A stretch of 46,725 nt of DNA from an uncultured Bdellovibrionales bacterium (lineage in GTDB: Bacteria > Pseudomonadota > Alphaproteobacteria > Micavibrionales > SZUA-601), in the NCBI GenBank assembly GCA_964496065.1, contig CAZBXD010000009.1, forward strand, positions 1 through 46,725, in the 5' to 3' direction. Shown piece by piece: positions 654-34,765 of the stretch. The notes under the pieces were generated by a model. It was given only the letters and a program-made list of their open reading frames with translations. It was not told the origin of the DNA and made no database searches. Every line of letters starts with the position of its first letter. Position 1 is the stretch's first letter. The position numbers and the translations under genes were made by a program.

Positions 654-695
654 TTGTTAGTATGTTAGGATTATCCTCCTGTAATGGAGTAATTT

Positions 696-1991
696 ATGGC
701 ACAATCTCTGGCAACACAATTGACTACCCTTTTTTTGGATCTCAACAGCTATTTTGCCAGTGTTGAGCAACAGATTAATCCTAGTTTTCGCGGGAAACCT
801 TTGATTGTTGTACCAACAGAAACCGAGGCAACTTGTGCCATTGCGGCCAGTTATGAGGCCAAACGTTTAGGGATTAAAACGAATACGCCGGTTTGGGAAG
901 CGCGGGCAAAATGCCCTGATTTAATTGTTATTCCCGCGCGCCATAATCGCTATGTTGACTACCATAAGCGAATTATGGCGGAACTTGATCGGCATGCCCC
1001 CATTATCAAAATTTGTTCGATAGATGAGGCGGCGTGTGAAATTCCGCATCGCTATCGTGAGCCGGAGCTGGCGATGGCCCTGGCACAACAGATTAAAATA
1101 GGTATTTGGAAAAATGTTGGCGAGGCTATTAACTGCTCCATTGGGATTGCGTCCAATGCGCTGTTAGGCAAGATTGCTTCCGATATGCAAAAACCAGATG
1201 GCTTGGTCGTCCTCTATCCCGATAAAATCCCGGAGGCGCTTTATCATCTGAAGCTACTTGATTTTCCAGGGATTGGTTTGGGCATGGAGCGGCGTTTTTA
1301 TCTCAAAGGAATTTTTAACATTGAGCAGTTTTGTAATTTATCGCCGAAACAGGCACGCAAAATCTGGGGGAGTGTCACGGGGGAGCGCTATTGGTATCAA
1401 CTACACGGTATGGAGATTGCCTCCCTCCCTTCCAAACGCACCACTGTGGGGCATAGCCATGTTTTGGCGCCGCCGTTACGCTTTCCGGATAAGGCACGAT
1501 TGGTTGCCCGTCGTTTGGCGGCCAAAGCCGCCAGTCGCTTGCGCAGATTAGGCTATTACGCGGGATGTGTTTACCTGTCTATTCGTTTTGTTGATCAAAC
1601 CCGTTGGTCAGGAGATCGCCGCTTATCCCATGCACAAGACAGTTTTTCTCTTCTCCATATTGTTGATGACTTATGGCGGCAAATGGCATTACAGATTGGC
1701 GATCTTTCCCATCGGCGCGTGAAAAAGGTGAGTGTTGGTTTTTTATCCTTGCGCCAGCGACAGATGATTACCAAAGACCTTTTTTCTGTCTCTCAAGAAC
1801 AAATCAAAAAATGGGAAGCCATTAGTGACAATATGGATCATTTGAATAAAAAATATGGCCGGGATACGGTGTTTATTGGTGCATTGCCGGGTATGAAAAA
1901 CAAGAAAATGTCGGCATTGGAAATGGGACAATACTCAGGGACAAAAATTGCCTTTTCTCGTATACCGGACCATGAAGAATTTTATGAATAG
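696..1991 (+). CDS. Y-family (DinB/UmuC/ImpB-type) translesion DNA polymerase
   Basis: N-terminal LFLDLNSYFASVEQ and downstream SIDEA acidic catalytic motifs typical of the Y-family palm domain; 431 aa; SOS-like box upstream. Confidence 0.8.
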   Translation: MAQSLATQLTTLFLDLNSYFASVEQQINPSFRGKPLIVVPTETEATCAIAASYEAKRLGIKTNTPVWEARAKCPDLIVIPARHNRYVDYHKRIMAELDRHAPIIKICSIDEAACEIPHRYREPELAMALAQQIKIGIWKNVGEAINCSIGIASNALLGKIASDMQKPDGLVVLYPDKIPEALYHLKLLDFPGIGLGMERRFYLKGIFNIEQFCNLSPKQARKIWGSVTGERYWYQLHGMEIASLPSKRTTVGHSHVLAPPLRFPDKARLVARRLAAKAASRLRRLGYYAGCVYLSIRFVDQTRWSGDRRLSHAQDSFSLLHIVDDLWRQMALQIGDLSHRRVKKVSVGFLSLRQRQMITKDLFSVSQEQIKKWEAISDNMDHLNKKYGRDTVFIGALPGMKNKKMSALEMGQYSGTKIAFSRIPDHEEFYE

Positions 1992-1997
1992 AAAGAG

Positions 1998-2765
1998 TTA
2001 AGCAACCATTTCAATCGGGCCGATAGCACGACCATGGATAAATTGGTCAACATAGGCGTTGTTGGCATTTTCCATCTCATGTACAGGCCCAGTCCAGATC
2101 ATCTGCCCCTTATATAGCATGGAGACACGGTCGGCGATTGAGCGCACACTTGCCATATCATGTGTAATCGTGACAGCCGTGGCGCCGATTTCTTTCACAC
2201 ATTTTACAATCAACTCATTAATAACATCTGACATAATTGGATCCAGACCAGTGGTTGGTTCGTCAAAGAAAATAATCTCTGGTTCAATGGCAATGGCACG
2301 TGCAAGCGCAACGCGTTTTTGCATACCACCAGACAGTTCAGCCGGGAATTTAAAGGCAGAATCTGGGCCAAGACCGACCGCCCGTAGTTTCTCCACGGCA
2401 AAGTCGGGCGCTTCTTTTCGGCTGATTTTCTTACGTTGCAAGAGAGCAAAGCAGATATTTTCCCACACAGGGAGTGAATCAAAGAGGGCACCCGCTTGAA
2501 AGAGCATACCAAATTTTTCCCGGATATGAAGTTGTTCTGCAGGCGAAGCGCCAACCATTTCCTGCCCATCGATCATAATTGATCCGCTATCAGCATGTAA
2601 AAGACCAAGAATACATTTCATCAAAACGGATTTACCGGATCCGGATCCGCCGATAATTACCATTGATTCCTGTTGCCGCACGTTGAGATCAATTCCACGC
2701 AGGACATGATTATCATCAAAGGATTTACTGACATTCTGAACGCTGATCTTAAGGTCTGTTGTCAT
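1998..2765 (-). CDS. mlaF: ABC transporter ATP-binding protein, MlaF-like (phospholipid/lipid asymmetry transport)
   Basis: Walker A GGSGSGKS, ABC signature LSGGMQKR and Walker B IIFFDEPT. It overlaps the upstream MlaE-type permease gene by 4 nt. Confidence 0.8.
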   Translation of the reverse strand: MTTDLKISVQNVSKSFDDNHVLRGIDLNVRQQESMVIIGGSGSGKSVLMKCILGLLHADSGSIMIDGQEMVGASPAEQLHIREKFGMLFQAGALFDSLPVWENICFALLQRKKISRKEAPDFAVEKLRAVGLGPDSAFKFPAELSGGMQKRVALARAIAIEPEIIFFDEPTTGLDPIMSDVINELIVKCVKEIGATAVTITHDMASVRSIADRVSMLYKGQMIWTGPVHEMENANNAYVDQFIHGRAIGPIEMVA

Positions 2766-3592
2766 GAAAAGAATACCTGGGTCAAGATATAGTTACAGAT
2801 CAAGATTAAAATAGAGGAAGAGACAACTGCACCAGTTGTTGCGCGACCAACGCCTTGGGCACCGCGGCCAGAGAAGAAGCCGTTATAACAGCCCATCAAG
2901 GCAACGATATAGCCGTAGACACCGGCCTTAACGAGACCAGAAATTACATCAATGGGTTCTAAGAAATCGATTGTTTGCTTGAGATAGTTAGCGGGGTTAA
3001 AGCCCAGTTTGTGAATACTAATGATATAACCACCAAAGACCCCAATAATATCGCCAACAAGCACAAGAAGGGGGAGCATTAAAACACCCGCAATCAAGCG
3101 TGGTGCAATCAAATACTTATATGGGTTCGTCGTCAGGGTGCGCAGGGCATCAATCTGTTCTGTGACGCGCATCGTGCCAATTTCTGCCGCCATCGCAGCA
3201 CCAATCCGCCCAGCCACCATCAAACCAGCGAGCACAGGGGCCAATTCTCGTGTGATGGAAAGAACAACAACGGTTGCCACGGCACCTTCTGCTGAAAAAC
3301 GAGAAAACCCAGTATAGCTTTGTAGAGCCAGGACCATCCCGGTAAATAAGGTCGTGAGACCAACCACAGGGAGGGAGTAATAGCCGATTTCAATAAATTG
3401 CCGGAAGATCAATCGTGGATAAATCGGCGGGCGGACAACATGCGAGGCACTAATACCAATAAAATAGCTTAAGCGACCGGTGGCATTGAGAAATTTCAAC
3501 ACGGTACGGCCGATATGCTGTAAGATACTAATAGGCAGATTTAAGAGCGCTTCCATGCCCGTTAAAATGGCATTGAACGGACGCAAAGGCAA
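2762..3592 (-). CDS. mlaE: ABC transporter permease, MlaE-like
   Basis: About 260-276 aa polytopic membrane protein with the MlaE/Ttg2B-like layout, translationally coupled to the MlaF-like ATPase. The exact start is uncertain; alternative Met at residue 12. Confidence 0.75.
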   Translation of the reverse strand: MPLRPFNAILTGMEALLNLPISILQHIGRTVLKFLNATGRLSYFIGISASHVVRPPIYPRLIFRQFIEIGYYSLPVVGLTTLFTGMVLALQSYTGFSRFSAEGAVATVVVLSITRELAPVLAGLMVAGRIGAAMAAEIGTMRVTEQIDALRTLTTNPYKYLIAPRLIAGVLMLPLLVLVGDIIGVFGGYIISIHKLGFNPANYLKQTIDFLEPIDVISGLVKAGVYGYIVALMGCYNGFFSGRGAQGVGRATTGAVVSSSILILICNYILTQVFFS

Positions 3593-3602
3593 GGGGGATT
3601 AT

Positions 3603-5102
3603 TTACTCACTATGATGGCGGTCAAGGTCAGAAAAACGAGTAAATTCACCATCAAAGAAGAGCTTAACCGTACCAATTGGGCCATGGCGCTGTTTGCCAA
3701 GAATGATTTCAGCAACATTTGTTGCGCGTGCCAGCTGTTCCTGCCAACGGGCGTAGCGATCACCAAATTTCTCCGGTGTTTCATTCGCGTGTTGGGTTGG
3801 TTCTTCACGCGAGAGGTAATATTCCTCCCGATAAATGAACATGACGACATCAGCATCTTGTTCAATTGAACCTGATTCGCGAAGATCAGAAAGCTGTGGG
3901 CGCTTATTCTCACGTTGCTCAACTTGACGAGAGAGCTGCGATAAAGCAATTACTGGCACATTTAATTCTTTTGCCAAGGTTTTAAGGCCGCGCGAGATTT
4001 CTGAGATTTCCTGCACCCGGTTATCATTAGAGCGGCGGCCCGATCCTCCCAAGAGTTGCAGATAATCGAGGATGATAAGGTCAAGACCATGTTGACGCTG
4101 TAGACGTCGGGCGCGGGTGCGAATACCGGAGATATTCAACGCAGCACTATCATCAATATAAAGGGGCAGAGTCGAGAGTTTCTGGCTCGCTTCCGCAAAG
4201 CGGTGGAAATCATCTTGGGAAATATCGCCACGGCGAATTTTCTCGGATCCGATATTGGCAACATCCGACAGAATACGGAGCGCGAGCTGTTCCGATGACA
4301 TCTCAAGGGAGAAAATGCCAACCCGGGCACCTTCTTTACCCTGACTTTCAACATAGGCGTTCGCCGCCTTGTAGGCGATATTAATGGCCAGCGAGGTTTT
4401 CCCCATAGAAGGACGGCCAGCGAGAATAATCAGGTCACTGGGGTGAAGGCCACCGAGCTTTTTGTCCATATCACGAAAACCAGAGGTGACACCGGTGACA
4501 TTACTGTCGGATAAAAAGGCTTTTTCAGCGGTTTTAATCGCCGTGGTTAATGATTCTTGAAACGGGATAAAGCCTTTTTTGTAGTCCCCATGCTCAGCCA
4601 AATTAAACAGCGTCGCTTCAGCCGTTTCAATCTGGGTAGTTGGCGGATTTTCTATATCATGTTCATGCGCCGTGTTCGAGATCTCTTCACCAATTGTGAT
4701 GAGCTGACGACGCAAATAAGTGTCATAAACCGCTTGACCGTAGGCCTGCGTATTCGCTACGGAGACAACATTTGCTGCTAGATCAGCCAAATAGGCCGGG
4801 CCACCAACATGAGCAAGACCATCGTCTTTGGCAAAAAAAGCTTTTAGGGTGACAGGATCGGCAACTTGTCCACGATCACATAAGGTCACGATTGCTTGGT
4901 AAATCGCGCCATGGGTGGGATGATAGAAATGCTCAGGCTTGAGGAACTCATTAACTTTTTCAATCGCTTGATTGTCAAGCAAGAGAGCACCAAGCACCCC
5001 TTGCTCCGCCTCTTCATTATGCGGACGTGCGCGATAGTCGGTGTTGCTGCCATCATTATCAGACGCTGTGTCAACTGTTAAGACAGATTTCAGTGAAGTC
5101 AT
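3603..5102 (-). CDS. dnaB: Replicative DNA helicase DnaB
   Basis: N-terminal PHNEEAEQGVLGALL, Walker A GRPSMGKTS, Walker B LIILDYLQLL and C-terminal RHGPIGTV; 499 aa, a normal length with no intein. Confidence 0.95.
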   Translation of the reverse strand: MTSLKSVLTVDTASDNDGSNTDYRARPHNEEAEQGVLGALLLDNQAIEKVNEFLKPEHFYHPTHGAIYQAIVTLCDRGQVADPVTLKAFFAKDDGLAHVGGPAYLADLAANVVSVANTQAYGQAVYDTYLRRQLITIGEEISNTAHEHDIENPPTTQIETAEATLFNLAEHGDYKKGFIPFQESLTTAIKTAEKAFLSDSNVTGVTSGFRDMDKKLGGLHPSDLIILAGRPSMGKTSLAINIAYKAANAYVESQGKEGARVGIFSLEMSSEQLALRILSDVANIGSEKIRRGDISQDDFHRFAEASQKLSTLPLYIDDSAALNISGIRTRARRLQRQHGLDLIILDYLQLLGGSGRRSNDNRVQEISEISRGLKTLAKELNVPVIALSQLSRQVEQRENKRPQLSDLRESGSIEQDADVVMFIYREEYYLSREEPTQHANETPEKFGDRYARWQEQLARATNVAEIILGKQRHGPIGTVKLFFDGEFTRFSDLDRHHSE

Positions 5103-5149
5103 AAGAGCTATTCTATATTCAAAATAATGTTAATTACCAGAGTATTCTG

Positions 5150-5184
5150 TAAAAAAAAGAGCCAGCCTGTGACAGGCGGCTCTT
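5150..5184 (-). terminator. Rho-independent terminator downstream of rplI
   Basis: The minus strand reads AAGAGCCGCCTGTCACAGGCTGGCTCTT followed by a T8 run. This is a GC-rich extended hairpin between the rplI stop and the dnaB start. Confidence 0.7.
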
Positions 5185-5245
5185 CTTAGAAAAGTAAAGA
5201 TCAGCTAAGATGCTTTTAAGAAGCCGCGTTTTCTTTGGTTTCTTC

Positions 5246-5944
5246 CTAAGCTGTTGCATTATCAGCGTCAGCCTCAGTAGCATCGGTATCCTCAGATGCC
5301 GCCGCTTCCGCTGGAGTAGGTGCTGCCGCTTCTTCAGCTTGATCAGTTAGGGTTGCTTTTGCTTGTTCGGCTGCTTCTTCGCTTTCAAAGACTTCAGCAA
5401 CAGCTGCGTCAACATCAATCTCAACTTCAGTCTCTTCAACAGCATTTCGATCAATAATTAGGGCACCGCCGCGCTCTAGCTGAATTTTTGCTTCTTCTTC
5501 AGAGCGGGCAACATTGGCCGTAACCTCAACAACAACTTCGGGATGCAGCGTAACACGTGCTGTAAATAGCCCCAACATTTTGATGGATTCGTTCAACGCA
5601 ACCTGTTGACGTGTAATAGTTGTACCGGAGGCCGTGACAGCTTCAGCGATATCGCGAGAGGATACCGAGCCATAAAGCTTACCAGATTCAGCCGCCTGAC
5701 GAACAACAGTAACAGTAAGATCATCGCTCATTTTCTTAGCAACAGCTTCAGCATCTTTTTTCTTTTGCAGATTATCGGCTTCAAGCTGTTTCTTTTGTGT
5801 TTCAAAAAAGGCGATATTATCCTGTGTCGCACGAAGCGCTTTCTTACGTGGGAGCAGGAAGTTGCGGGCATAGCCTGGCTTAACGGTGACCGTGTCACCC
5901 ATTTGGCCGAGGTTTTCAACGCGTTCAAGAAGAATAACTTGCAT
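5246..5944 (-). CDS. rplI: 50S ribosomal protein L9 with a long acidic/Ala-rich C-terminal extension
   Basis: [32 protein letters not shown] is the L9 N-terminal domain. It is the third gene of an rpsF-rpsR-rplI operon. 232 aa. Confidence 0.93.
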
Positions 5945-5955
5945 GATTTTTCCCC

Positions 5956-6198
5956 TTATTCTTTATGTGCGGTGTATGGCAAAAGAGCCAAGGCACGCGC
6001 CCGTTTGATTGCTTTGGTTAATTCGCGTTGCTTTTTTGTGCACACGCCGGTAATGCGGCTCGGGGTAATTTTACCACGCTCTGACACGAATTTTTTTAAT
6101 AAGTCGACATCTTTATAGTCGATCTTTGGCGAATTGTCGCTGGAGAAAGGACAAACCTTCCGGCGACGGAAGAATTTTGGTGCAGATTTCTCATTCAT
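5956..6198 (-). CDS. rpsR: 30S ribosomal protein S18
   Basis: The S18 signature region [26 protein letters not shown]; 80 aa; overlaps the rpsF stop by 4 nt. Confidence 0.95.
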
Positions 6199-6533
6199 GC
6201 TGCTTCTCCTTCTTTCTTATTCATCATAATTGTTTGGCCTTCAGGCTTTTCTTCCAATGCTGTGGAAAGAAAACGCAAAATATCTTCGTTGAGGCGCAGG
6301 TTACGCTCCAACTCGTCTTTTGCTGCTGCCGCTCCATCGATATGGAAGCACACATAATGCCCTTTACGGTTTTTGTTGATTCGGTAGGCCAACTGACGCA
6401 ATCCCCAAAATTCGGTATTGATCACTTGTCCACCATTATCGTTCACGATATCGGCCATCTTTGTAGCCAGTTCTTTACATTGACCGTCGGTCAAGTCTTG
6501 CCGTGCAATAAACACGGTTTCATAATAAGCCAT
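6195..6533 (-). CDS. rpsF: 30S ribosomal protein S6
   Basis: [14 protein letters not shown]... is a typical S6 N-terminus; SD GGAGG upstream; first gene of the S6-S18-L9 operon. Confidence 0.93.
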
Positions 6534-6557
6534 TTTTACCTCCTTATGGCTGTTAAA

Positions 6558-6578
6558 GCTAAGGCCAAATGCCTTAGC
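6558..6578 (-). promoter_or_regulatory. Perfect 8-bp hairpin in the rpsF 5' leader (possible S6:S18 autoregulatory element)
   Basis: GCTAAGGC-caaat-GCCTTAGC lies about 25 nt upstream of the rpsF start codon. Its position matches where r-protein leader structures occur. Confidence 0.3.
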
Positions 6579-6747
6579 AAGGTAGGTGTGGACGGTTTAT
6601 AGCCCCGTTATACCCTAAAAAGCAAGAACTTTTTTGTTTTCGGTTCCCCCGATCCAAGAGAAGAGAGTCTTTTATGTCTTATGGAATGTAATATGGGTAA
6701 TAATATTTTTAATTCAAGAAAAACACTATTTTTTGTCAAGAAAAACC

Positions 6748-6777
6748 TTGCCTATAAGAGAAGAATCGGTTTATAAA
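6748..6777 (+). promoter_or_regulatory. Candidate sigma-70 promoter (TTGCCT-N17-TTATAA) for the small acidic ORF
   Basis: -35-like TTGCCT at 6748-6753 and -10-like TTATAA/TATAAA at 6771-6777, about 45 nt upstream of the ATG at 6820. Confidence 0.3.
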
Positions 6778-6819
6778 GCGCGCAATCCATTTCAACCAAA
6801 AAATAAGGGAGTGTAAAAA

Positions 6820-6903
6820 ATGGGATACAAAGACGAAGAAGACGAAGACCCACTTGATAATGGCGATAATCAGTTTGACGAAGAAGATGAGTTTCTTACT
6901 TAG
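6820..6903 (+). CDS. Hypothetical 27-aa hyper-acidic small protein (MGYKDEEDEDPLDNGDNQFDEEDEFLT)
   Basis: It is not in the ORF track because it is shorter than 60 aa. SD AAGGGAG lies 7 nt upstream of the ATG, a promoter-like element is upstream, and an intrinsic terminator is about 65 nt downstream. There is no homology evidence. Confidence 0.35.
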   Translation: MGYKDEEDEDPLDNGDNQFDEEDEFLT

Positions 6904-6967
6904 GGAAGCTCCAGAAAAGTTACCAGTCACTTAAAGCTCTAATTTATAAAAGATTTTAATAATACAT

Positions 6968-6997
6968 AAAGGCGGCTCTAGTCGCCTTTATTTTTTT
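6968..6997 (+). terminator. Rho-independent terminator
   Basis: AAAGGCG-gctctagt-CGCCTTT followed by ATTTTTTT. It is oriented for plus-strand transcription and sits between the small ORF and fabD. Confidence 0.65.
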
Positions 6998-7070
6998 GTC
7001 CTCAGACAAAACTTGACAAAAGGGCAAAAACCACTATCTCTATGGCTGTTTTTATAACAGGAGTTTATCA

Positions 7071-8015
7071 ATGACCACAGCATTACTCTTTCCCGGACAA
7101 GGATCGCAAACGATCGGCATGGGCAAAGATTTCTATGATTCTTTTGCCTCCGCCCGTGAGGTTTTTGAGCAAGTGGATGATGCGCTCAATCAAAAACTCT
7201 CGCAGATTATTTTTGAGGGTCCTGAGGATCAGATTAATCTCACTGAAAATACGCAACCAGCTTTGATGGCGGTGTCCATGGCGGTGATGGCGGTTTTATC
7301 AAAAGAAGCCGGCCTTAATATCGCTGAAAAAATATCTTTTATGGCGGGTCATTCCTTGGGTGAGTATAGTGCCTATGCGGCGGCGGGATCATTCTCCCTT
7401 GCGGATACAGCCCGTCTTTTGAAAACCCGTGGTCAGGCGATGCAAAAAGCCGTCCCGGTTGGACAAGGCGCCATGGCTGCCGTGATCGGGTTAGAAATGG
7501 CGGATGTGGTTGGTCTTTGCGATCAAGCTTCAACGGATGATTCGTTGTGTTCTTTGGCGAATGATAACTGTCCGGGGCAAATCGTTGTCAGCGGTCATAC
7601 CGCGGCGGTCGAAAAAGCTGCGGCTTTAGCGACAGAAAAAGGGGCGCGTAAAGCTGTGATGTTGCCAGTGAGTGCCCCGTTTCATTGTGCGCTGATGTTG
7701 CCCGCGGCTGAAGCAATGGCGATTGCCTTGTCTGAGGTTGAGGTCACTATGCCGTCTTGCCCGGTTTATGCGAATGTGACAACAAGGCCAGCCAAATCAG
7801 TCGATGAAATTCGTGCCCTTCTTGTGCAACAGGTCACAGACCAAGTGCGCTGGCGCGAAACCATTGGCGCCTTGCAGGCTGATGGCGCCACCCGTTTTGT
7901 TGAAATTGGCGCGGGTAAGGTTTTGACCGGGCTGATGCGTCGCATTGATCGTGCAGCAGAGACATTTGTTGTCAATACGCCTGAGGATGTTGATGCCCTC
8001 GTCAAAGCACTCTAG
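7071..8015 (+). CDS. fabD: Malonyl-CoA:ACP transacylase
   Basis: N-terminal FPGQGSQ.IGMG and active-site GHSLGEYSA; first gene of the fab cluster. Confidence 0.95.
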   Translation: MTTALLFPGQGSQTIGMGKDFYDSFASAREVFEQVDDALNQKLSQIIFEGPEDQINLTENTQPALMAVSMAVMAVLSKEAGLNIAEKISFMAGHSLGEYSAYAAAGSFSLADTARLLKTRGQAMQKAVPVGQGAMAAVIGLEMADVVGLCDQASTDDSLCSLANDNCPGQIVVSGHTAAVEKAAALATEKGARKAVMLPVSAPFHCALMLPAAEAMAIALSEVEVTMPSCPVYANVTTRPAKSVDEIRALLVQQVTDQVRWRETIGALQADGATRFVEIGAGKVLTGLMRRIDRAAETFVVNTPEDVDALVKAL

Positions 8016-8035
8016 TTTTTAATCAGGAGAAAAAT

Positions 8036-8773
8036 ATGTTTGATTTAACAGGTAAAACGGCGCTTGTAACCGGCGCTTCCGGCGGTATTGGTGGCGAAAT
8101 TGCCAAAGCGTTGCATGCACAAGGCGCAACTATCACCATTACAGGCCGTAAAAAAGAAGCTTTGGATAAACTGGCTGGTGAGTTGGGGGGGCGTGTCCAT
8201 GTGGTTGTGGGCGATCTGTCTTCTGCGGAAGCGGCAGACGCCGTTGTTGCGGTAGCAACACAAGCAATGGAAAAGATTGATATTCTTGTCAATAATGCAG
8301 GCCTGACCCGTGATGGTTTGGCGATGCGCATGAAAGATGAAGATTGGCAGGCCGTTATTGATGTGAATCTCACAGCGGCGTTTCGTTTATCGCGCTCTGT
8401 CATGAAAGGGATGATGAAAAATCGCTTTGGACGGATGATCAATATTACATCCGTGGTTGGTGTGACAGGGAATCCAGGGCAAGCAAACTATGTGGCGTCA
8501 AAAGCTGGAATCATCGGCATGTCCAAGGCTTTGGCGGCTGAAGTGGCCAGTCGTGGCATCACGGTAAACTGTGTTGCGCCGGGCTTTATTCAAACGGCAA
8601 TGACAGATGTCTTGACAGAGGAGCAAAAAAATCGCATCTTGCCTGCCGTTCCTGCGAACCGCTTGGGTCAGCCAGACGAAATTGCCTCTGCAGTTGTTTA
8701 TCTGGCGAGTGATGAAGCAGCCTATGTGACAGGCCAGACAATCCATGTTAATGGTGGGATGGCAATGATCTAG
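8036..8773 (+). CDS. fabG: 3-oxoacyl-ACP reductase
   Basis: SDR Rossmann motif TGASGGIGG, NNAG, and the catalytic YVASKAG (YxxxK); it lies between fabD and acpP. Confidence 0.95.
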   Translation: MFDLTGKTALVTGASGGIGGEIAKALHAQGATITITGRKKEALDKLAGELGGRVHVVVGDLSSAEAADAVVAVATQAMEKIDILVNNAGLTRDGLAMRMKDEDWQAVIDVNLTAAFRLSRSVMKGMMKNRFGRMINITSVVGVTGNPGQANYVASKAGIIGMSKALAAEVASRGITVNCVAPGFIQTAMTDVLTEEQKNRILPAVPANRLGQPDEIASAVVYLASDEAAYVTGQTIHVNGGMAMI

Positions 8774-8912
8774 ACAAGGCTGTTTGGTCTTGACAAGAGG
8801 GGCCGGGACAGGCAGAAATAGCTTTCAAGAGTTTCGGTGTGATAAAGTCTTTATGGCACCATCTGCCAAATAAAGAATTTTTTGGTTTCAGTTAATACGA
8901 AAGGAAAAATAA

Positions 8913-30847: not shown

Positions 30848-30859
30848 AGGATGACAATC

Positions 30860-32056
30860 ATGAGTTTTGGTTACGTCGAAAAACCCTCTGTTAAACCTGA
30901 TAACCCTTCTTTCAGCTGCGGCCCGTGTGCCAAGAGAGAGGGGTGGACAGTCGCTGCGCTAGAGAATGCTTGTATTGGTCGAACACATCGTTCACAAAAA
31001 GCTAAACACCGTATGCGTCAAGTTGTTGATTTATCTCGTAAATTGCTTGATATCCCCGATGATTTTCTTGTGGCGATTACTCCTGCGTCTGATACAGGCG
31101 CAGTTGAGACGGCGCTGTGGAACATGGTTGGTGTCCCAGGTATTGGGGTGGATGTCTATTATTGGGAACATTTTGGCCGGATCTGGGCTAATGATGTTAT
31201 GAATCAACTTGATATTAAAGATCGCCGGATTTTAAGTTACGATTTTGGTGAAATACCTGATTTGACTAAAGTGGATGCCGATCGTGATTTGGTTTTTGTT
31301 TGGAATGGAACAACATCTGGGGTTTGTGTACCGAATGGCGACTGGTTACCCACAGGTGGGAAGGGGCTGCGTATTTGTGATGCAACTTCGGCGGCCTTTG
31401 CTTATGAGTTACCCTGGGATAAGTTGGATGTTGTGACATGGTCTTGGCAAAAGGTTATGGGCAGCGAGGCTCAGCACGGTATGCTCGCACTCAGCCCGAA
31501 GGCTGTCGAGCGCGTCAAATCATATCAGCCGACTTGGCCAATGCCTAAAATCTATAATCTCAAGAAAGATGGTGTTTTTAACGAGGGGTATTTTAATGAA
31601 GTGACAAATAATACCCCTTCGTTATTATGCGTTGAGGATGCGCTGGATGCGTTGAAATGGATTGAAACAATCGGTGGCCGGCCGGTATTGCAAAAACGAA
31701 TTGCCCTTAGTGCAGCGCATATTCAAAAATGGGTTCAGCAATCCGATTGGGTAAAATATCTTTGTGATGATCTGGTTTATCTTTCGCATACATCCCCGTG
31801 TTTTCAGATTACATCGTCAGAATTTGAGGGTTTAGATAAAGAAAAGCAATGGGATTTTGTTAATTATATGGCGGAGCTTTTGGAGGCAGAAGAGGCGGCT
31901 TATGACATTAAATGCTATGCATCAGCTCCAGCAGGTTTGCGATTTTGGTGCGGTGGAACCGTTAACCCTAATGATGTTCAAAAACTGCTCCCCTGGGTCG
32001 ATTGGGCTTATGATCAGGCCATGCTTGCGCTTAAATCGGGAAAAATTGCTATATAA
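30860..32056 (+). CDS. serC: Phosphoserine aminotransferase (alphaproteobacterial/archaeal-type SerC)
   Basis: N-terminal KPSVKPDNPSFSCGPCAKREGW resembles the SerC type-2 family, with a PLP-lysine context SWQKVMG. Start placed at ATG 30860, with AAGGA 8 nt upstream. Confidence 0.75.
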   Translation: MSFGYVEKPSVKPDNPSFSCGPCAKREGWTVAALENACIGRTHRSQKAKHRMRQVVDLSRKLLDIPDDFLVAITPASDTGAVETALWNMVGVPGIGVDVYYWEHFGRIWANDVMNQLDIKDRRILSYDFGEIPDLTKVDADRDLVFVWNGTTSGVCVPNGDWLPTGGKGLRICDATSAAFAYELPWDKLDVVTWSWQKVMGSEAQHGMLALSPKAVERVKSYQPTWPMPKIYNLKKDGVFNEGYFNEVTNNTPSLLCVEDALDALKWIETIGGRPVLQKRIALSAAHIQKWVQQSDWVKYLCDDLVYLSHTSPCFQITSSEFEGLDKEKQWDFVNYMAELLEAEEAAYDIKCYASAPAGLRFWCGGTVNPNDVQKLLPWVDWAYDQAMLALKSGKIAI

Positions 32057-32154: not shown

Positions 32155-34248
32155 ATGACTGACGATAAAAATATGGAGCAACCAGCAGGACAAACCCCCG
32201 CTCAAGAAGGGGACGGCACTCCCTTACCAAACGAGACGGTACAATCAAATTTTGAAGTCTTTTTGAAAGACCGTTATAAGATTCACACGGATCAAGCCTT
32301 GACTGATTTTGAGCATAAATACGCGCAAGTTTTTATGGCATCAGAAAAAGGTAAAAACACGACCGAGTGTATAGCTGTGGTCCCAAAAGATCGCTATCCA
32401 GCGCGGCAATCAATTCTTTATCCATATTATAATTTAGGGCTATCTGGTTTGATAGAGCTTCTTGATTGGGGAGTTGTTGATTGGCTCAGTGATGGCACAA
32501 CACGCTTTGCTTTGATCTTTAAAAAGCCAGAAGGAAACATCCTTTTAGCACAGCATCAAAAACGCCGCGATCCGATGACGGAGGATAATATTAAAAAATT
32601 TATTATCACCCCGATTGCAGACGTTATACAAGACATCTCTGATCGTGGAATTTTTCATGGGAATATTCGTCTCGATAACATCTATTATTCAAGCAATAAC
32701 CATGCGGTCTTGGGGGAGTGTTTTTCTTCTTTTCCTGGGGCTATTCAGCCAGTACTGTATGAAACAATTGAACGGGGGATGTGTGATCCGCAATCTCGCG
32801 GTGAAGGAACCGCACAAGATGACATTTACGCACTAGGTGTCACGGTTTCTATTTTATTGCGCGGCGAAAATCCATTTCTTGGCATGAGCGCTAAACAAAT
32901 TACAGAAGATAAAATTAATAAAGGCTCTTTTGGACTATTAACAGAAGGAATGCGCTTTACAGCAAGTATGTCAGAATTTTTGCGTGCCACCTTGCACGAT
33001 GATCCAAAACAACGATGGACAGTTGAACAATTAACCGCTTGGGTACAAGGGTCTCGTTCGCCTGCCAAGCAAAAGATTCATATTAAAAAGGCCTCACGAA
33101 CGGTCGAATTCAATGGTAAGAAATATTACCACATTCCATTATTGGCAAGAGACTTGCCAGATAATCCTTCTGAGGCTGTTCGTTTAATTGAAGATGGGAC
33201 CATTACAAATTGGCTTGAAAGAAGTTTAAAAGCTCAAGAAATATCAGATGCTCTAACAGAGGCAATTAGCCGAGCATCCATGGGGGGGAAGGGGAGCGCT
33301 GACTATCCAGCCCGCTTAATAACATATGCGTCCATGGCCTTGGATCCCATGGCTCCAATTCGCTATAAGGGGTTATGTGTATTTCCTAAAGGGATCGTTG
33401 GCGGCCTTGTTGAGGCTATACTCACTGGCAAGGATATTAAAGTTTATGTCGAAATTATCAAGAATAGATACCCTTGGACCTGGCTTGGTTTTAAAGAAAA
33501 CATGGCAAATGACACCTTAGATTTACTGAGAATTTTTGATTCATGTTCAAAAATTATCAATCGTAGTGGCGCAAGTAATGGTGTTGAACGCTGTATTTAT
33601 GAACTCAATAACGACGTACCGTGTTTAAGTTCCATGTTTAAAAAGAAATATGTCAACGATCCACAAGACATGGTAAAGGCAATGGACAATATCGTGAATG
33701 ATTTGGATCTTTCTGTGTCTTTAATAGATCGCCATGTGGCTTCTTTTATCTCATGTCGTGACAATAAAGACCAGTCGGGGCTTATTGGTCTAATCCAAGG
33801 GACAGACGCGATTAAGCGTAGCTTAGCTATGATTACACTTTTTCAAAATATTCAGGTTCGATATTACAAGAAACCTCTTGTAAATATTGCCAAGCGACTC
33901 TCTGCGGATGCTGAAATTGTTATTGAGCGCTATCATAACACGGATTTAGCGAATGATATTCGAAAAAAAATTGCTAAAACAGTTGAAAAAGGTGATATCA
34001 CAAAGCTGTTATCCCTAGTTGATAACCCGCAAATTGTTAACAAAGACAAGCTGGAATTTGAAACAGCGTGTCAGGAATATTTTATCCTCAAGCAAGAATA
34101 TGAAAATATCACAAAGCGCCTTGAAGGAAATAAGGCGCATGGTACTTCAGTGGGACGTGAACTTGCAGCTGTTATTTCTGGTGTTATGGCTGGAATACTC
34201 ATTGCTGGTCTACTCCTGATAACAATTACATCAGGGTTTGGGGGATAA
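32155..34248 (+). CDS. Tail-anchored protein-kinase-fold protein with degenerate catalytic motifs (predicted pseudokinase) plus about 370 aa of unknown domain
   Basis: Kinase-like subdomains are recognisable by eye: catalytic-loop position IFHGNIRLDN (vs HRDxKPxN), activation-segment start LGECF (vs xDFG), YETIE (vs APE), DIYALGVTVSILLRGENPF (subdomain IX) and DDPKQRW (subdomain XI). I find no Gly-rich loop or VAIK lysine. A single C-terminal TM (AAVISGVMAGILIAGLLLITIT) ends 6 residues before the stop. Confidence 0.7.
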   Translation: MTDDKNMEQPAGQTPAQEGDGTPLPNETVQSNFEVFLKDRYKIHTDQALTDFEHKYAQVFMASEKGKNTTECIAVVPKDRYPARQSILYPYYNLGLSGLIELLDWGVVDWLSDGTTRFALIFKKPEGNILLAQHQKRRDPMTEDNIKKFIITPIADVIQDISDRGIFHGNIRLDNIYYSSNNHAVLGECFSSFPGAIQPVLYETIERGMCDPQSRGEGTAQDDIYALGVTVSILLRGENPFLGMSAKQITEDKINKGSFGLLTEGMRFTASMSEFLRATLHDDPKQRWTVEQLTAWVQGSRSPAKQKIHIKKASRTVEFNGKKYYHIPLLARDLPDNPSEAVRLIEDGTITNWLERSLKAQEISDALTEAISRASMGGKGSADYPARLITYASMALDPMAPIRYKGLCVFPKGIVGGLVEAILTGKDIKVYVEIIKNRYPWTWLGFKENMANDTLDLLRIFDSCSKIINRSGASNGVERCIYELNNDVPCLSSMFKKKYVNDPQDMVKAMDNIVNDLDLSVSLIDRHVASFISCRDNKDQSGLIGLIQGTDAIKRSLAMITLFQNIQVRYYKKPLVNIAKRLSADAEIVIERYHNTDLANDIRKKIAKTVEKGDITKLLSLVDNPQIVNKDKLEFETACQEYFILKQEYENITKRLEGNKAHGTSVGRELAAVISGVMAGILIAGLLLITITSGFGG

Positions 34249-34249
34249 A

Positions 34250-34765
34250 ATGGCAAAGAAAAAAACCAATAAACCGGTTAAAAATACTAAAAAGAAGAAA
34301 AAAGGCTTTAGCTTTTGGGGAGTGTTTTCTGCCCTTATAATGACTATGGGGGCTGTTTTGATGATGCCCACAACCATAATTTTTGTGATTGCCATGATCC
34401 CTACAGCAGTTGCTTCTTTCACAGATCGGACAATGGAACGTACAGCAGGTATAACGGTTGGCGCGATGAATTTTGCCGGTGTCCTCCCAGCACTTTTGAA
34501 CTTATGGCAGTCCGGTCATGCAGTCGAAAATTCACTACGAATTATTTCACAACCTCTTATGTTACTTTATATGTATGGTGGGGCTGGGATTGGAACGTTA
34601 ATATACTTTAATACTCCCCCGATTGTTTCAAATTTTCTTAAGAAAAAAGGCCTTAATCGCTTAGACCGTATTGAAAAACGACACAAACAACTCATTGAAA
34701 AATGGGGGATTACTGTAACCGGTATTGACCCAGAGACGCAGAAAGAAAAATCATCGATATCATAA
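34250..34765 (+). CDS. Hypothetical polybasic 4-TM membrane protein, translationally coupled to the pseudokinase gene
   Basis: The ATG lies 1 nt after the upstream TAA. The N-terminus MAKKKTNKPVKNTKKKKKG has 10 Lys in 18 residues, followed by four hydrophobic helices and a charged C-terminal tail. No family is recognised. Confidence 0.6.
   Translation: MAKKKTNKPVKNTKKKKKGFSFWGVFSALIMTMGAVLMMPTTIIFVIAMIPTAVASFTDRTMERTAGITVGAMNFAGVLPALLNLWQSGHAVENSLRIISQPLMLLYMYGGAGIGTLIYFNTPPIVSNFLKKKGLNRLDRIEKRHKQLIEKWGITVTGIDPETQKEKSSIS

Follow-up and report, generated by a model that had tools for sequence, protein, structure and literature searches.

A tail-anchored predicted pseudokinase of Alphaproteobacteria and the membrane-protein gene that follows it

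Why would a reduced bacterial genome keep a protein kinase fold in which the catalytic residues have been replaced? The question is raised by a gene of an uncultured alphaproteobacterium, located on contig CAZBXD010000009.1 (assembly GCA_964496065.1), within a stretch of 46,725 nucleotides, referred to below as the window. The open reading frame (ORF) 32155-34248, on the + strand, encodes a tail-anchored pseudokinase of 697 residues. A sequence-only reading of this region had described a catalytic loop HGNIRLDN and a metal-binding triad ECF, had predicted on these grounds that the kinase core is inactive, and had interpreted the protein as a conserved fold with lost chemistry, of the kind found in scaffold or allosteric pseudokinases.

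The sequence strings on which that interpretation was based were all found where they had been placed: CIAVV at residues 72-76, LTDFEHKYAQVF at 49-60, YETIE at 202-206 and DDPKQRW at 282-288; the string DIYALG corresponds to residues 223-228. The codons CAT GGG AAT ATT CGT CTC GAT AAC, at 32656-32679, translate into H168-G-N-I-R-L-D-N175. The span 32656-32721, which had been assigned to loop and triad together, starts at the right nucleotide and ends 3 nt short, E-C-F (residues 188-190) being encoded at 32716-32724. The full-length homologues returned by database searches number in the hundreds, the lowest E-values being 0, and the HGNIRLDN pattern is therefore not a product of chance.

Kinase fold and residue correspondences

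The whole protein was modelled by using AlphaFold2 with the family alignment as input, and the resulting model has a mean predicted local distance difference test score (pLDDT) of 88.2 and a predicted template modelling score (pTM) of 0.81. Residues ~30-300 take up a complete two-lobed kinase fold, with an N-lobe sheet, alpha-C and the C-lobe helices E-I. The best Foldseek matches of the model are PknB and Stk1, with E-values of ~1e-9. Superposition of model residues ~30-300 by VIA-align produced Z values of 20-21 and a root-mean-square deviation (rmsd) of ~3 Å over ~250 residues, against PknA, WNK3, ULK1 and PknB. The Pfam Pkinase profile recognizes residues 219-294 only, within the C-lobe, at 36.1 bits against a gathering threshold of 31.7. 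For the purposes of this analysis, a pseudokinase was operationally defined as a kinase fold lacking at least one of the VAIK lysine, the HRD aspartate and the DFG aspartate; the 697-residue protein, and the family as a whole, fall within this definition, and the loss is conserved among orthologues.

Residue correspondences were established by aligning the protein to kinases of known structure. In a phmmer search of all PDB chains, MAPKAP kinase 3 was matched to residues 72-309, its HRDVKPEN facing HGNIRLDN. When a profile of 38 homologues was used, the significance was raised to 1e-11, and the alignment with MAPKAP kinase 2 paired fAlv with FALK, HgnIrpdN with HRDVKPEN and LGecl with LTDFG. 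V76 therefore stands in the place of the ATP-binding beta-3 lysine, N170 in that of the catalytic aspartate and E188 in that of the metal-binding DFG aspartate. All four assignments originally made by manual alignment (Asn for the catalytic Asp, ECF for DFG, Val for the beta-3 Lys, and no Gly-rich loop) are thus upheld by the phmmer and profile alignments and by the predicted structure. In the model, strands 41-48 and 57-64 are joined by a loop, LTDFEHKY, at the site expected for the Gly-rich loop; it contains no glycine, as had been claimed.

The DFG motif is the least simple case, as pairwise phmmer alignments place it one or two residues differently. E188 is favoured as the probable counterpart of the DFG aspartate because of the profile alignment, of its position directly after predicted strand 184-186, and of the presence of an acidic residue at position 188 in 97% of the family. 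Further downstream, E203 is the putative equivalent of the APE glutamate, as suggested by the short helix (205-208) that follows it in the model.

Conservation of the substitutions in the family

Conservation was evaluated on 180 distinct full-length members, kept from a set of 192 by requiring R287 and W288, a filter intended to remove wrongly called ORFs. Since the set was selected on these two residues, it gives no independent count for them; in a 38-sequence alignment D282, R287 and W288 are invariant. Unless otherwise stated, the figures below refer to the 180 members.

The beta-3 lysine position, 76, is occupied by Val, Ile, Leu or Met (in 81, 75, 13 and 6 members, respectively), and by Lys in none. 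At position 170, corresponding to the catalytic aspartate, Ala (64), Asn (44), Ser (22) and Gly (21) predominate, and Asp is found in 7 members. The arginine of HRD, at position 169, is replaced by Gly in 133 members and kept in 43; the lysine of HRDxK, at position 172, is replaced by Arg in 149 (83%) and by Asn in 24. There is no conserved alpha-C glutamate, position 86, which is aligned to it, being Asp or Glu in 46% of the sequences only, and just 11 members retain a GxGxx[GAS]-like remnant between beta1 and beta2.

Other positions of the same site are nearly constant. The histidine of HRD (H168) and the metal-binding asparagine (N175) are each present in 176 members (98%), and the glycine preceding DFG (G187) in 179 (99%). 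Position 188 is Glu in 115 and Asp in 59 members, and hence acidic in 174 (97%); the F-G of DFG becomes Cys, found at position 189 in 148 members, followed by a hydrophobic residue at 190. The alanine of VAIK (A74) is kept in 168 members (93%), and R84, a family-specific residue without a canonical role, in 167 (93%); G127 is conserved at at least 90%. The joint state of no lysine at 76, no aspartate at 170, an acidic residue at 188 and N175 is observed in 165 members. Mean conservation peaks (0.63) in the region of beta-8 and the activation segment, residues 184-219, and the activation-segment-like stretch and the C-lobe are its best conserved parts. The stretch 191-228 contains Q198, E203 of the YETIE string, an RGxG insert at 215-218 and the beginning of helix alpha-F (DDIYALG).

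A small number of members depart from this pattern, having an H-G-D loop (the 7 mentioned above) and/or a GPGG-type remnant of the Gly-rich loop (the 11 mentioned above); they include loci L080 and L084 (Skermanella), sequences P0015 and P0051, and others. All of them still lack the beta-3 lysine. By comparison of the sequences, these loops and remnants may be vestiges of an active ancestor.

These data also bear on whether a genuine set of catalytic residues could be hidden elsewhere. No lysine is conserved in the N-lobe of the 180 members, where the only positions conserved at 90% or more are A74, R84, G106 and W110, and no aspartate is conserved at position 170 or next to it. It is thus very unlikely that the protein is an ordinary, active Ser/Thr kinase and that alignment has misplaced its catalytic residues. 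Such a reading could draw on the disagreement among pairwise alignments about DFG and on the label "serine/threonine protein kinase", given to homologues in some databases, but the profile alignment, the secondary structure of the model and the conservation seen in the family all lead to the same assignments, and the labels of family members as active Ser/Thr kinases are probably wrong.

Canonical phosphotransfer activity is very probably absent, because the beta-3 lysine, the alpha-C glutamate, the Gly-rich loop and the catalytic aspartate are all missing. The claim of lost chemistry consequently stands for the lysine, the aspartate and the Gly-rich loop, and needs to be qualified for the metal site, which is not simply lost, as N175 and an acidic residue at 188 are retained. 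The loss of catalytic residues is a family-wide trait, fixed across orthologues, rather than a recent decay. The retention of H168, N175, G187, the acidic 188, R84 and A74 shows that the pseudo-active site has been remodelled and that selection still acts on it.

Distribution, membrane anchor and possible role

The family is large and vertically inherited in Alphaproteobacteria. In the order to which the window's genome belongs, a single-copy, open family gene was found in 40 of 41 genomes, and in 31 of the 31 high-quality ones. Within the class, 119 of 301 evenly sampled genomes are positive (about 40% of the Alphaproteobacteria sampled), and in a sample of 301 genomes from the phylum all 14 with a match, namely the window's genome and 13 others, belong to this same class. 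Named members include Azospirillum brasilense, Micavibrio aeruginosavorus, Rhodocista, Skermanella, Arenibaculum and Roseiterribacter. A Pkinase match above the gathering threshold was obtained in only 12 of the 41 genomes of the order, many orthologues scoring below it, and the family may for this reason have been missed by Pfam-seeded kinome surveys.

The genome from which the window was taken measures 1.34 Mb and is 100% complete by marker genes. A small genome and degenerate catalytic motifs could be taken as signs of a pseudogene in progress; however, the ORF is uninterrupted over its full length, 40 of the 41 genomes of the order have one orthologue with an open frame, identity among the closest relatives is 59-76%, and retention in a reduced genome in itself argues for function. 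Decay of the gene is hardly credible on these grounds, and the fact that reduced genomes keep it as a single copy speaks for a basic role in the cell.

In the same genome, profile searches with Pkinase, PK_Tyr_Ser-Thr, PP2C_2 and FHA gave no further match. Most of the 41 genomes of the order contain just the weak Pkinase match of the family itself, and an additional Pkinase match elsewhere was found in only ~6. This makes it very unlikely that the protein acts allosterically on an active Hanks-type kinase, as HER3, STRAD-alpha or JAK JH2 do, although eukaryotic pseudokinases most commonly work by allosteric control (review PMC12599244); for the organism of the window this reading is close to refuted. 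Of the two roles originally envisaged, scaffold and allosteric regulator, the scaffold remains favoured.

Behind the kinase fold lies an all-alpha domain of ~310 residues, whose conserved positions are W353, P401, W443, G476, E478, R479, Y482, C490, D525-R526-H527 and Q567; W353, P401, W443, G476, Y482, C490, D525, H527 and Q567 are invariant in the 38-sequence alignment. Searches for relatives of this fold gave no Foldseek match at E<=0.001, a best VIA-align (wide) Z of 6.2, which is within the noise range of the tool for helical models, scores not above 0.81 in the ESM Atlas, and no Pfam match. A profile search of PDB returned sub-threshold rows only, the best of which (E 0.004) concerns designed armadillo repeats, with no stretch passing alone. 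By using a profile of the helical domain, 1,573 cluster representatives (at 50% identity) were identified in a library of 1.84 billion. Among the 150 matches listed, the domain starts near residue 300 of a protein of ~690 residues, or lies in shorter proteins, which are probably fragments; among these matches it is found only behind the pseudokinase domain or in such probable fragments. No longer fused forms (at least 1221 residues) were found, which is weak evidence. An apparent 826-residue "fusion" at locus L075 and a 574-residue ORF at L046 were rejected as off-frame ORFs of GC-rich DNA.

The helical domain is connected by a long helix to a single transmembrane (TM) helix, in which G667 and A671 are conserved. 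About 6 residues separate this helix from the stop codon, and, because the chain ends so soon after its single TM helix, nearly all of the protein presumably faces the cytoplasm.

The ATG of the next gene begins 1 nt after the pseudokinase stop, at 34250. Related loci were collected with a 10-sequence alignment of family members, and a homologue of this partner gene was found directly downstream, on the same strand, at 86 of 91 loci from other genomes, or at 76 of 80 by tblastn. In three of the five loci without it the contig ends at that point, and the remaining two (L051 and L052) are truly without a partner nearby. These two, where the pseudokinase gene stands without a partner downstream, come from Rhodospirillales HK-STAS-PROT-21 and from an Alphaproteobacteria metagenome-assembled genome. 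The partner protein matches no Pfam or PADLOC family, and its matches in the Atlas are Pseudomonadota clusters with spurious automatic names.

The role that we consider most likely is that of a scaffold or sensor at the membrane, without catalysis; the fuller picture, in which a scaffold or conformational switch operates together with the downstream partner, is given a probability of about 0.6. The last helix would tether the cytoplasmic pseudokinase and helical domains to the inner side of the membrane; the pseudokinase would act non-catalytically, as a scaffold or by switching conformation, and would form a complex with the product of the partner gene. A protein, a small ligand or a metal may bind to a surface provided by the remodelled cleft, the C-lobe and the activation-segment-like stretch. 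Two points weigh against this picture. The complex is suggested by gene order only; and a pseudokinase with a purely structural role would not usually conserve N175, E/D188, A74 in the adenine pocket, R84 and R172, which leaves room for ligand binding or for atypical catalysis.

The main alternative, conceivable although rather unlikely, is that the domain is not inert, and that it binds a metal or a nucleotide-like ligand in a non-canonical way, as a ligand-operated switch or as an enzyme with other chemistry. The pattern of conservation around the cleft fits this idea: N175, the acidic 188, H168, G187, A74, R84, R172 and G127 are maintained, and the catalytic-base position drifts among small residues. 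ActPs1-3 and GLW, which are examples of fully degraded bacterial pseudokinases, lose the DFG aspartate in 98-100% of their members (bioRxiv 10.1101/2025.01.12.632604), whereas an acidic residue is kept here. SelO and SidJ, once called pseudokinases, are cautionary precedents, the former catalyzing AMPylation and the latter glutamylation (review PMC12599244). However, the elements that hold the phosphates, beta-3 lysine, alpha-C glutamate and Gly-rich loop, are all missing, with no conserved lysine in the N-lobe to replace the first. N175 and H168, in addition, also have purely structural roles in kinases. That the remodelled cleft (A74, R84, G127, H168, R172, N175, G187 and E/D188) is a working site, for ligand or metal binding without phosphotransfer or for a different reaction, is accordingly put forward as a tentative proposal, grounded in residue conservation. 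If true, the protein would be a membrane-tethered metabolite sensor, or an atypical enzyme, acting through its small membrane partner, and many reduced alphaproteobacterial genomes would contain no other protein with a kinase fold.

To return to the scaffold or switch, the significance of the family lies in its size (~1,500 clusters at 50% identity) and in its persistence as a single-copy gene in 1.3-Mb genomes without an active Hanks kinase, phosphatase or FHA reader. The constant helical domain and the near-constant downstream membrane-protein gene point to a conserved, kinase-independent role in Rhodospirillales-type Alphaproteobacteria, and culturable members, such as Azospirillum brasilense, make this role genetically testable.

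The features of the locus are collected in Table 1. Upstream of the pseudokinase gene lie era and a type-2 serC, and downstream of the partner gene a convergent gene for an RluD-like pseudouridine synthase. The upstream gene at 30851-32056 (+) encodes a type-2 (Methanosarcina-type) phosphoserine transaminase, with an NCBIfam NF002841 score of 547 bits; its only Pfam-A match at E<=1, to YdaS_toxin, is due to chance. In Azospirillum and its relatives in the Azospirillaceae (loci L020-L046, ~1100-8900 each) the order is hisZ-like gene, purA, pseudokinase, partner, convergent rpoH-like gene (sigma-70 family) and convergent rluD. Part of the purA/rluD neighbourhood is old, because purA precedes the gene pair in 46 of 80 loci and rluD follows it in 32 of the 80. 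The neighbourhoods consist of housekeeping genes and give no trusted functional clue. Promoter and terminator scans of the region remained at background level. A terminator-like hairpin at 34331-34353 (+), inside the partner ORF, is probably a chance occurrence, the number of such sites in the region being that of the background.

Table 1. Features of the pseudokinase locus. Positions refer to the window; residue numbers refer to the 697-residue protein.
Feature	Positions	Strand	Basis
Whole ORF, tail-anchored pseudokinase	32155..34248	+	ORF list; at least 129 full-length homologues; AlphaFold2 model (pLDDT 88.2, pTM 0.81)
Residues 1-33, unconserved, probably disordered N-terminal tail	32155..32253	+	pLDDT <50 for residues 1-29; mean top-residue frequency 0.08
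Residues 34-300, predicted complete bilobal protein-kinase fold (pseudokinase domain)	32254..33054	+	AlphaFold2, Foldseek, VIA-align
Residues 49-56, LTDFEHKY, beta1-beta2 loop at the Gly-rich loop site, no Gly	32299..32322	+	AlphaFold2 strands 41-48 and 57-64
Residues 72-77, CIAVVP, beta-3; A74 is the VAIK Ala, V76 replaces the ATP-binding Lys	32368..32385	+	Profile alignment to MAPKAP kinase 2
R84, near-invariant Arg at the start of the short alpha-C helix (85-92)	32404..32406	+	Arg in 167 of 180
Residues 168-175, HGNIRLDN, catalytic loop, Asn for catalytic Asp	32656..32679	+	Aligned to HRDVKPEN
Residues 187-190, GECF, DFG-equivalent; E188 a conservative replacement of the metal-binding Asp	32713..32724	+	LGecl paired with LTDFG
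Residues 191-228, short, highly conserved activation-segment-like stretch	32725..32838	+	Conservation, motif frequencies
Residues 282-288, DDPKQRW, subdomain XI with R287 and W288	32998..33018	+	Pfam Pkinase alignment to profile position 258/263
Residues 317-625, all-alpha domain of ~310 residues, no solved fold matched	33103..34029	+	Separate AlphaFold2 model, pLDDT 88.5
Residues 626-660, long helix connecting to the membrane anchor	34030..34134	+	AlphaFold2 helix 625-658
Single C-terminal TM helix (tail anchor), about residues 666-690	34150..34245	+	Kyte-Doolittle window 666-697, maximum 2.57
Partner gene, small polytopic membrane protein of 171 residues, polybasic N-terminus	34250..34765	+	ORF list

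Comparison with known kinases and pseudokinases

Bacterial pseudokinases are only now being catalogued. Seven families, ActPs1-3, GLW, CP1, DYD and DLHK, are listed in a 2025 atlas (bioRxiv 10.1101/2025.01.12.632604) and in a review (PMC12599244). As far as the sequences can be set against the descriptions of these families, the one reported here appears to match none of them, and a literature search on alphaproteobacterial or tail-anchored bacterial pseudokinases found no paper on it. Anti-phage defence kinases (MADS6/Mad6, PD-T4-6 and MkoA) were also considered and rejected, the generic kinase-core similarity being far below the family cut-offs, in a housekeeping neighbourhood: NCBIfam MAD6 gave 42.3 bits against a cut-off of 460, and PADLOC matches reached at most 39.5 bits, over the generic kinase core.

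Among the seven, GLW is the only proteobacterial family with a C-terminal TM region. Its members have G-L-W in place of HRD and LLL[L/W] in beta-3, and have lost the DFG aspartate in 100% of cases (bioRxiv 10.1101/2025.01.12.632604; PMC12599244). The present family is likewise proteobacterial, with a TM helix C-terminal to the pseudokinase domain and a hydrophobic residue in place of the beta-3 lysine, but differs in its loop, H-G-x-I-R-P-x-N, in its beta-3 strand, [FY]-A-[LI]-[VI]-C, and in position 188, acidic in 97% of members. When the 180 members were scanned for the GLW motifs, in a comparison made by the description of that family only, G-L-W was found in 1, not at the loop, and LLL[LW] in 0.

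The order of a kinase domain followed by a C-terminal TM helix is the commonest architecture of bacterial serine/threonine kinases (bioRxiv 10.1101/2025.01.12.632604), and is common to PknB, PknA, Stk1 and the present family. With these PF00069 kinases the family shares the same predicted bilobal fold (Z 19.6-21.3, rmsd ~3.4 Å over ~250-260 residues, Foldseek E ~1e-9). Unlike them, it has no beta-3 lysine, HRD aspartate, alpha-C glutamate or Gly-rich loop, and no extracellular sensor domain, PASTA or other, as the chain ends ~6 residues after the TM helix; it carries instead the ~310-residue helical domain between kinase fold and anchor.

In eukaryotes, the JAK2 JH2 pseudokinase has an H-G-N loop and HER3 an H-R-N loop, with the same change from Asp to Asn and with the downstream asparagine kept. 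JAK JH2 and HER3 retain the beta-3 lysine, bind ATP, and regulate an active kinase domain or partner. In contrast, the present family lacks the lysine, and the genome of the window lacks an active kinase; the H-G-N resemblance to JAK JH2 would be convergent. Titin kinase (PDB 1TKI), which is among the best PDB sequence matches, has E-F-G for D-F-G, the same Asp-to-Glu change as at E188, but it is a eukaryotic sarcomeric protein and keeps the catalytic-loop aspartate (HFDIRPEN in the alignment). Titin kinase also keeps the beta-3 lysine.

The closest parallel in function comes from secretion. In the Firmicute type VIIb secretion system, a membrane pseudokinase, EssB/YukC (PDB 6Z0F), serves as the scaffold (review PMC12599244). 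EssB is absent from the sequence and fold matches listed by PDB phmmer, Foldseek and VIA-align. It differs from the present protein in having an extracellular domain and a type VII secretion gene cluster, whereas here the TM helix lies near the stop codon and the neighbours are era, serC, the partner gene and an RluD-like gene; the asparagine and the acidic DFG position, moreover, are kept in this family. The two have in common a cytoplasmic pseudokinase with degraded catalytic motifs and Gly-rich loop and a single TM helix, and EssB acts as a scaffold with membrane partners. By this analogy, EssB/YukC would be the best functional counterpart of the protein described here.

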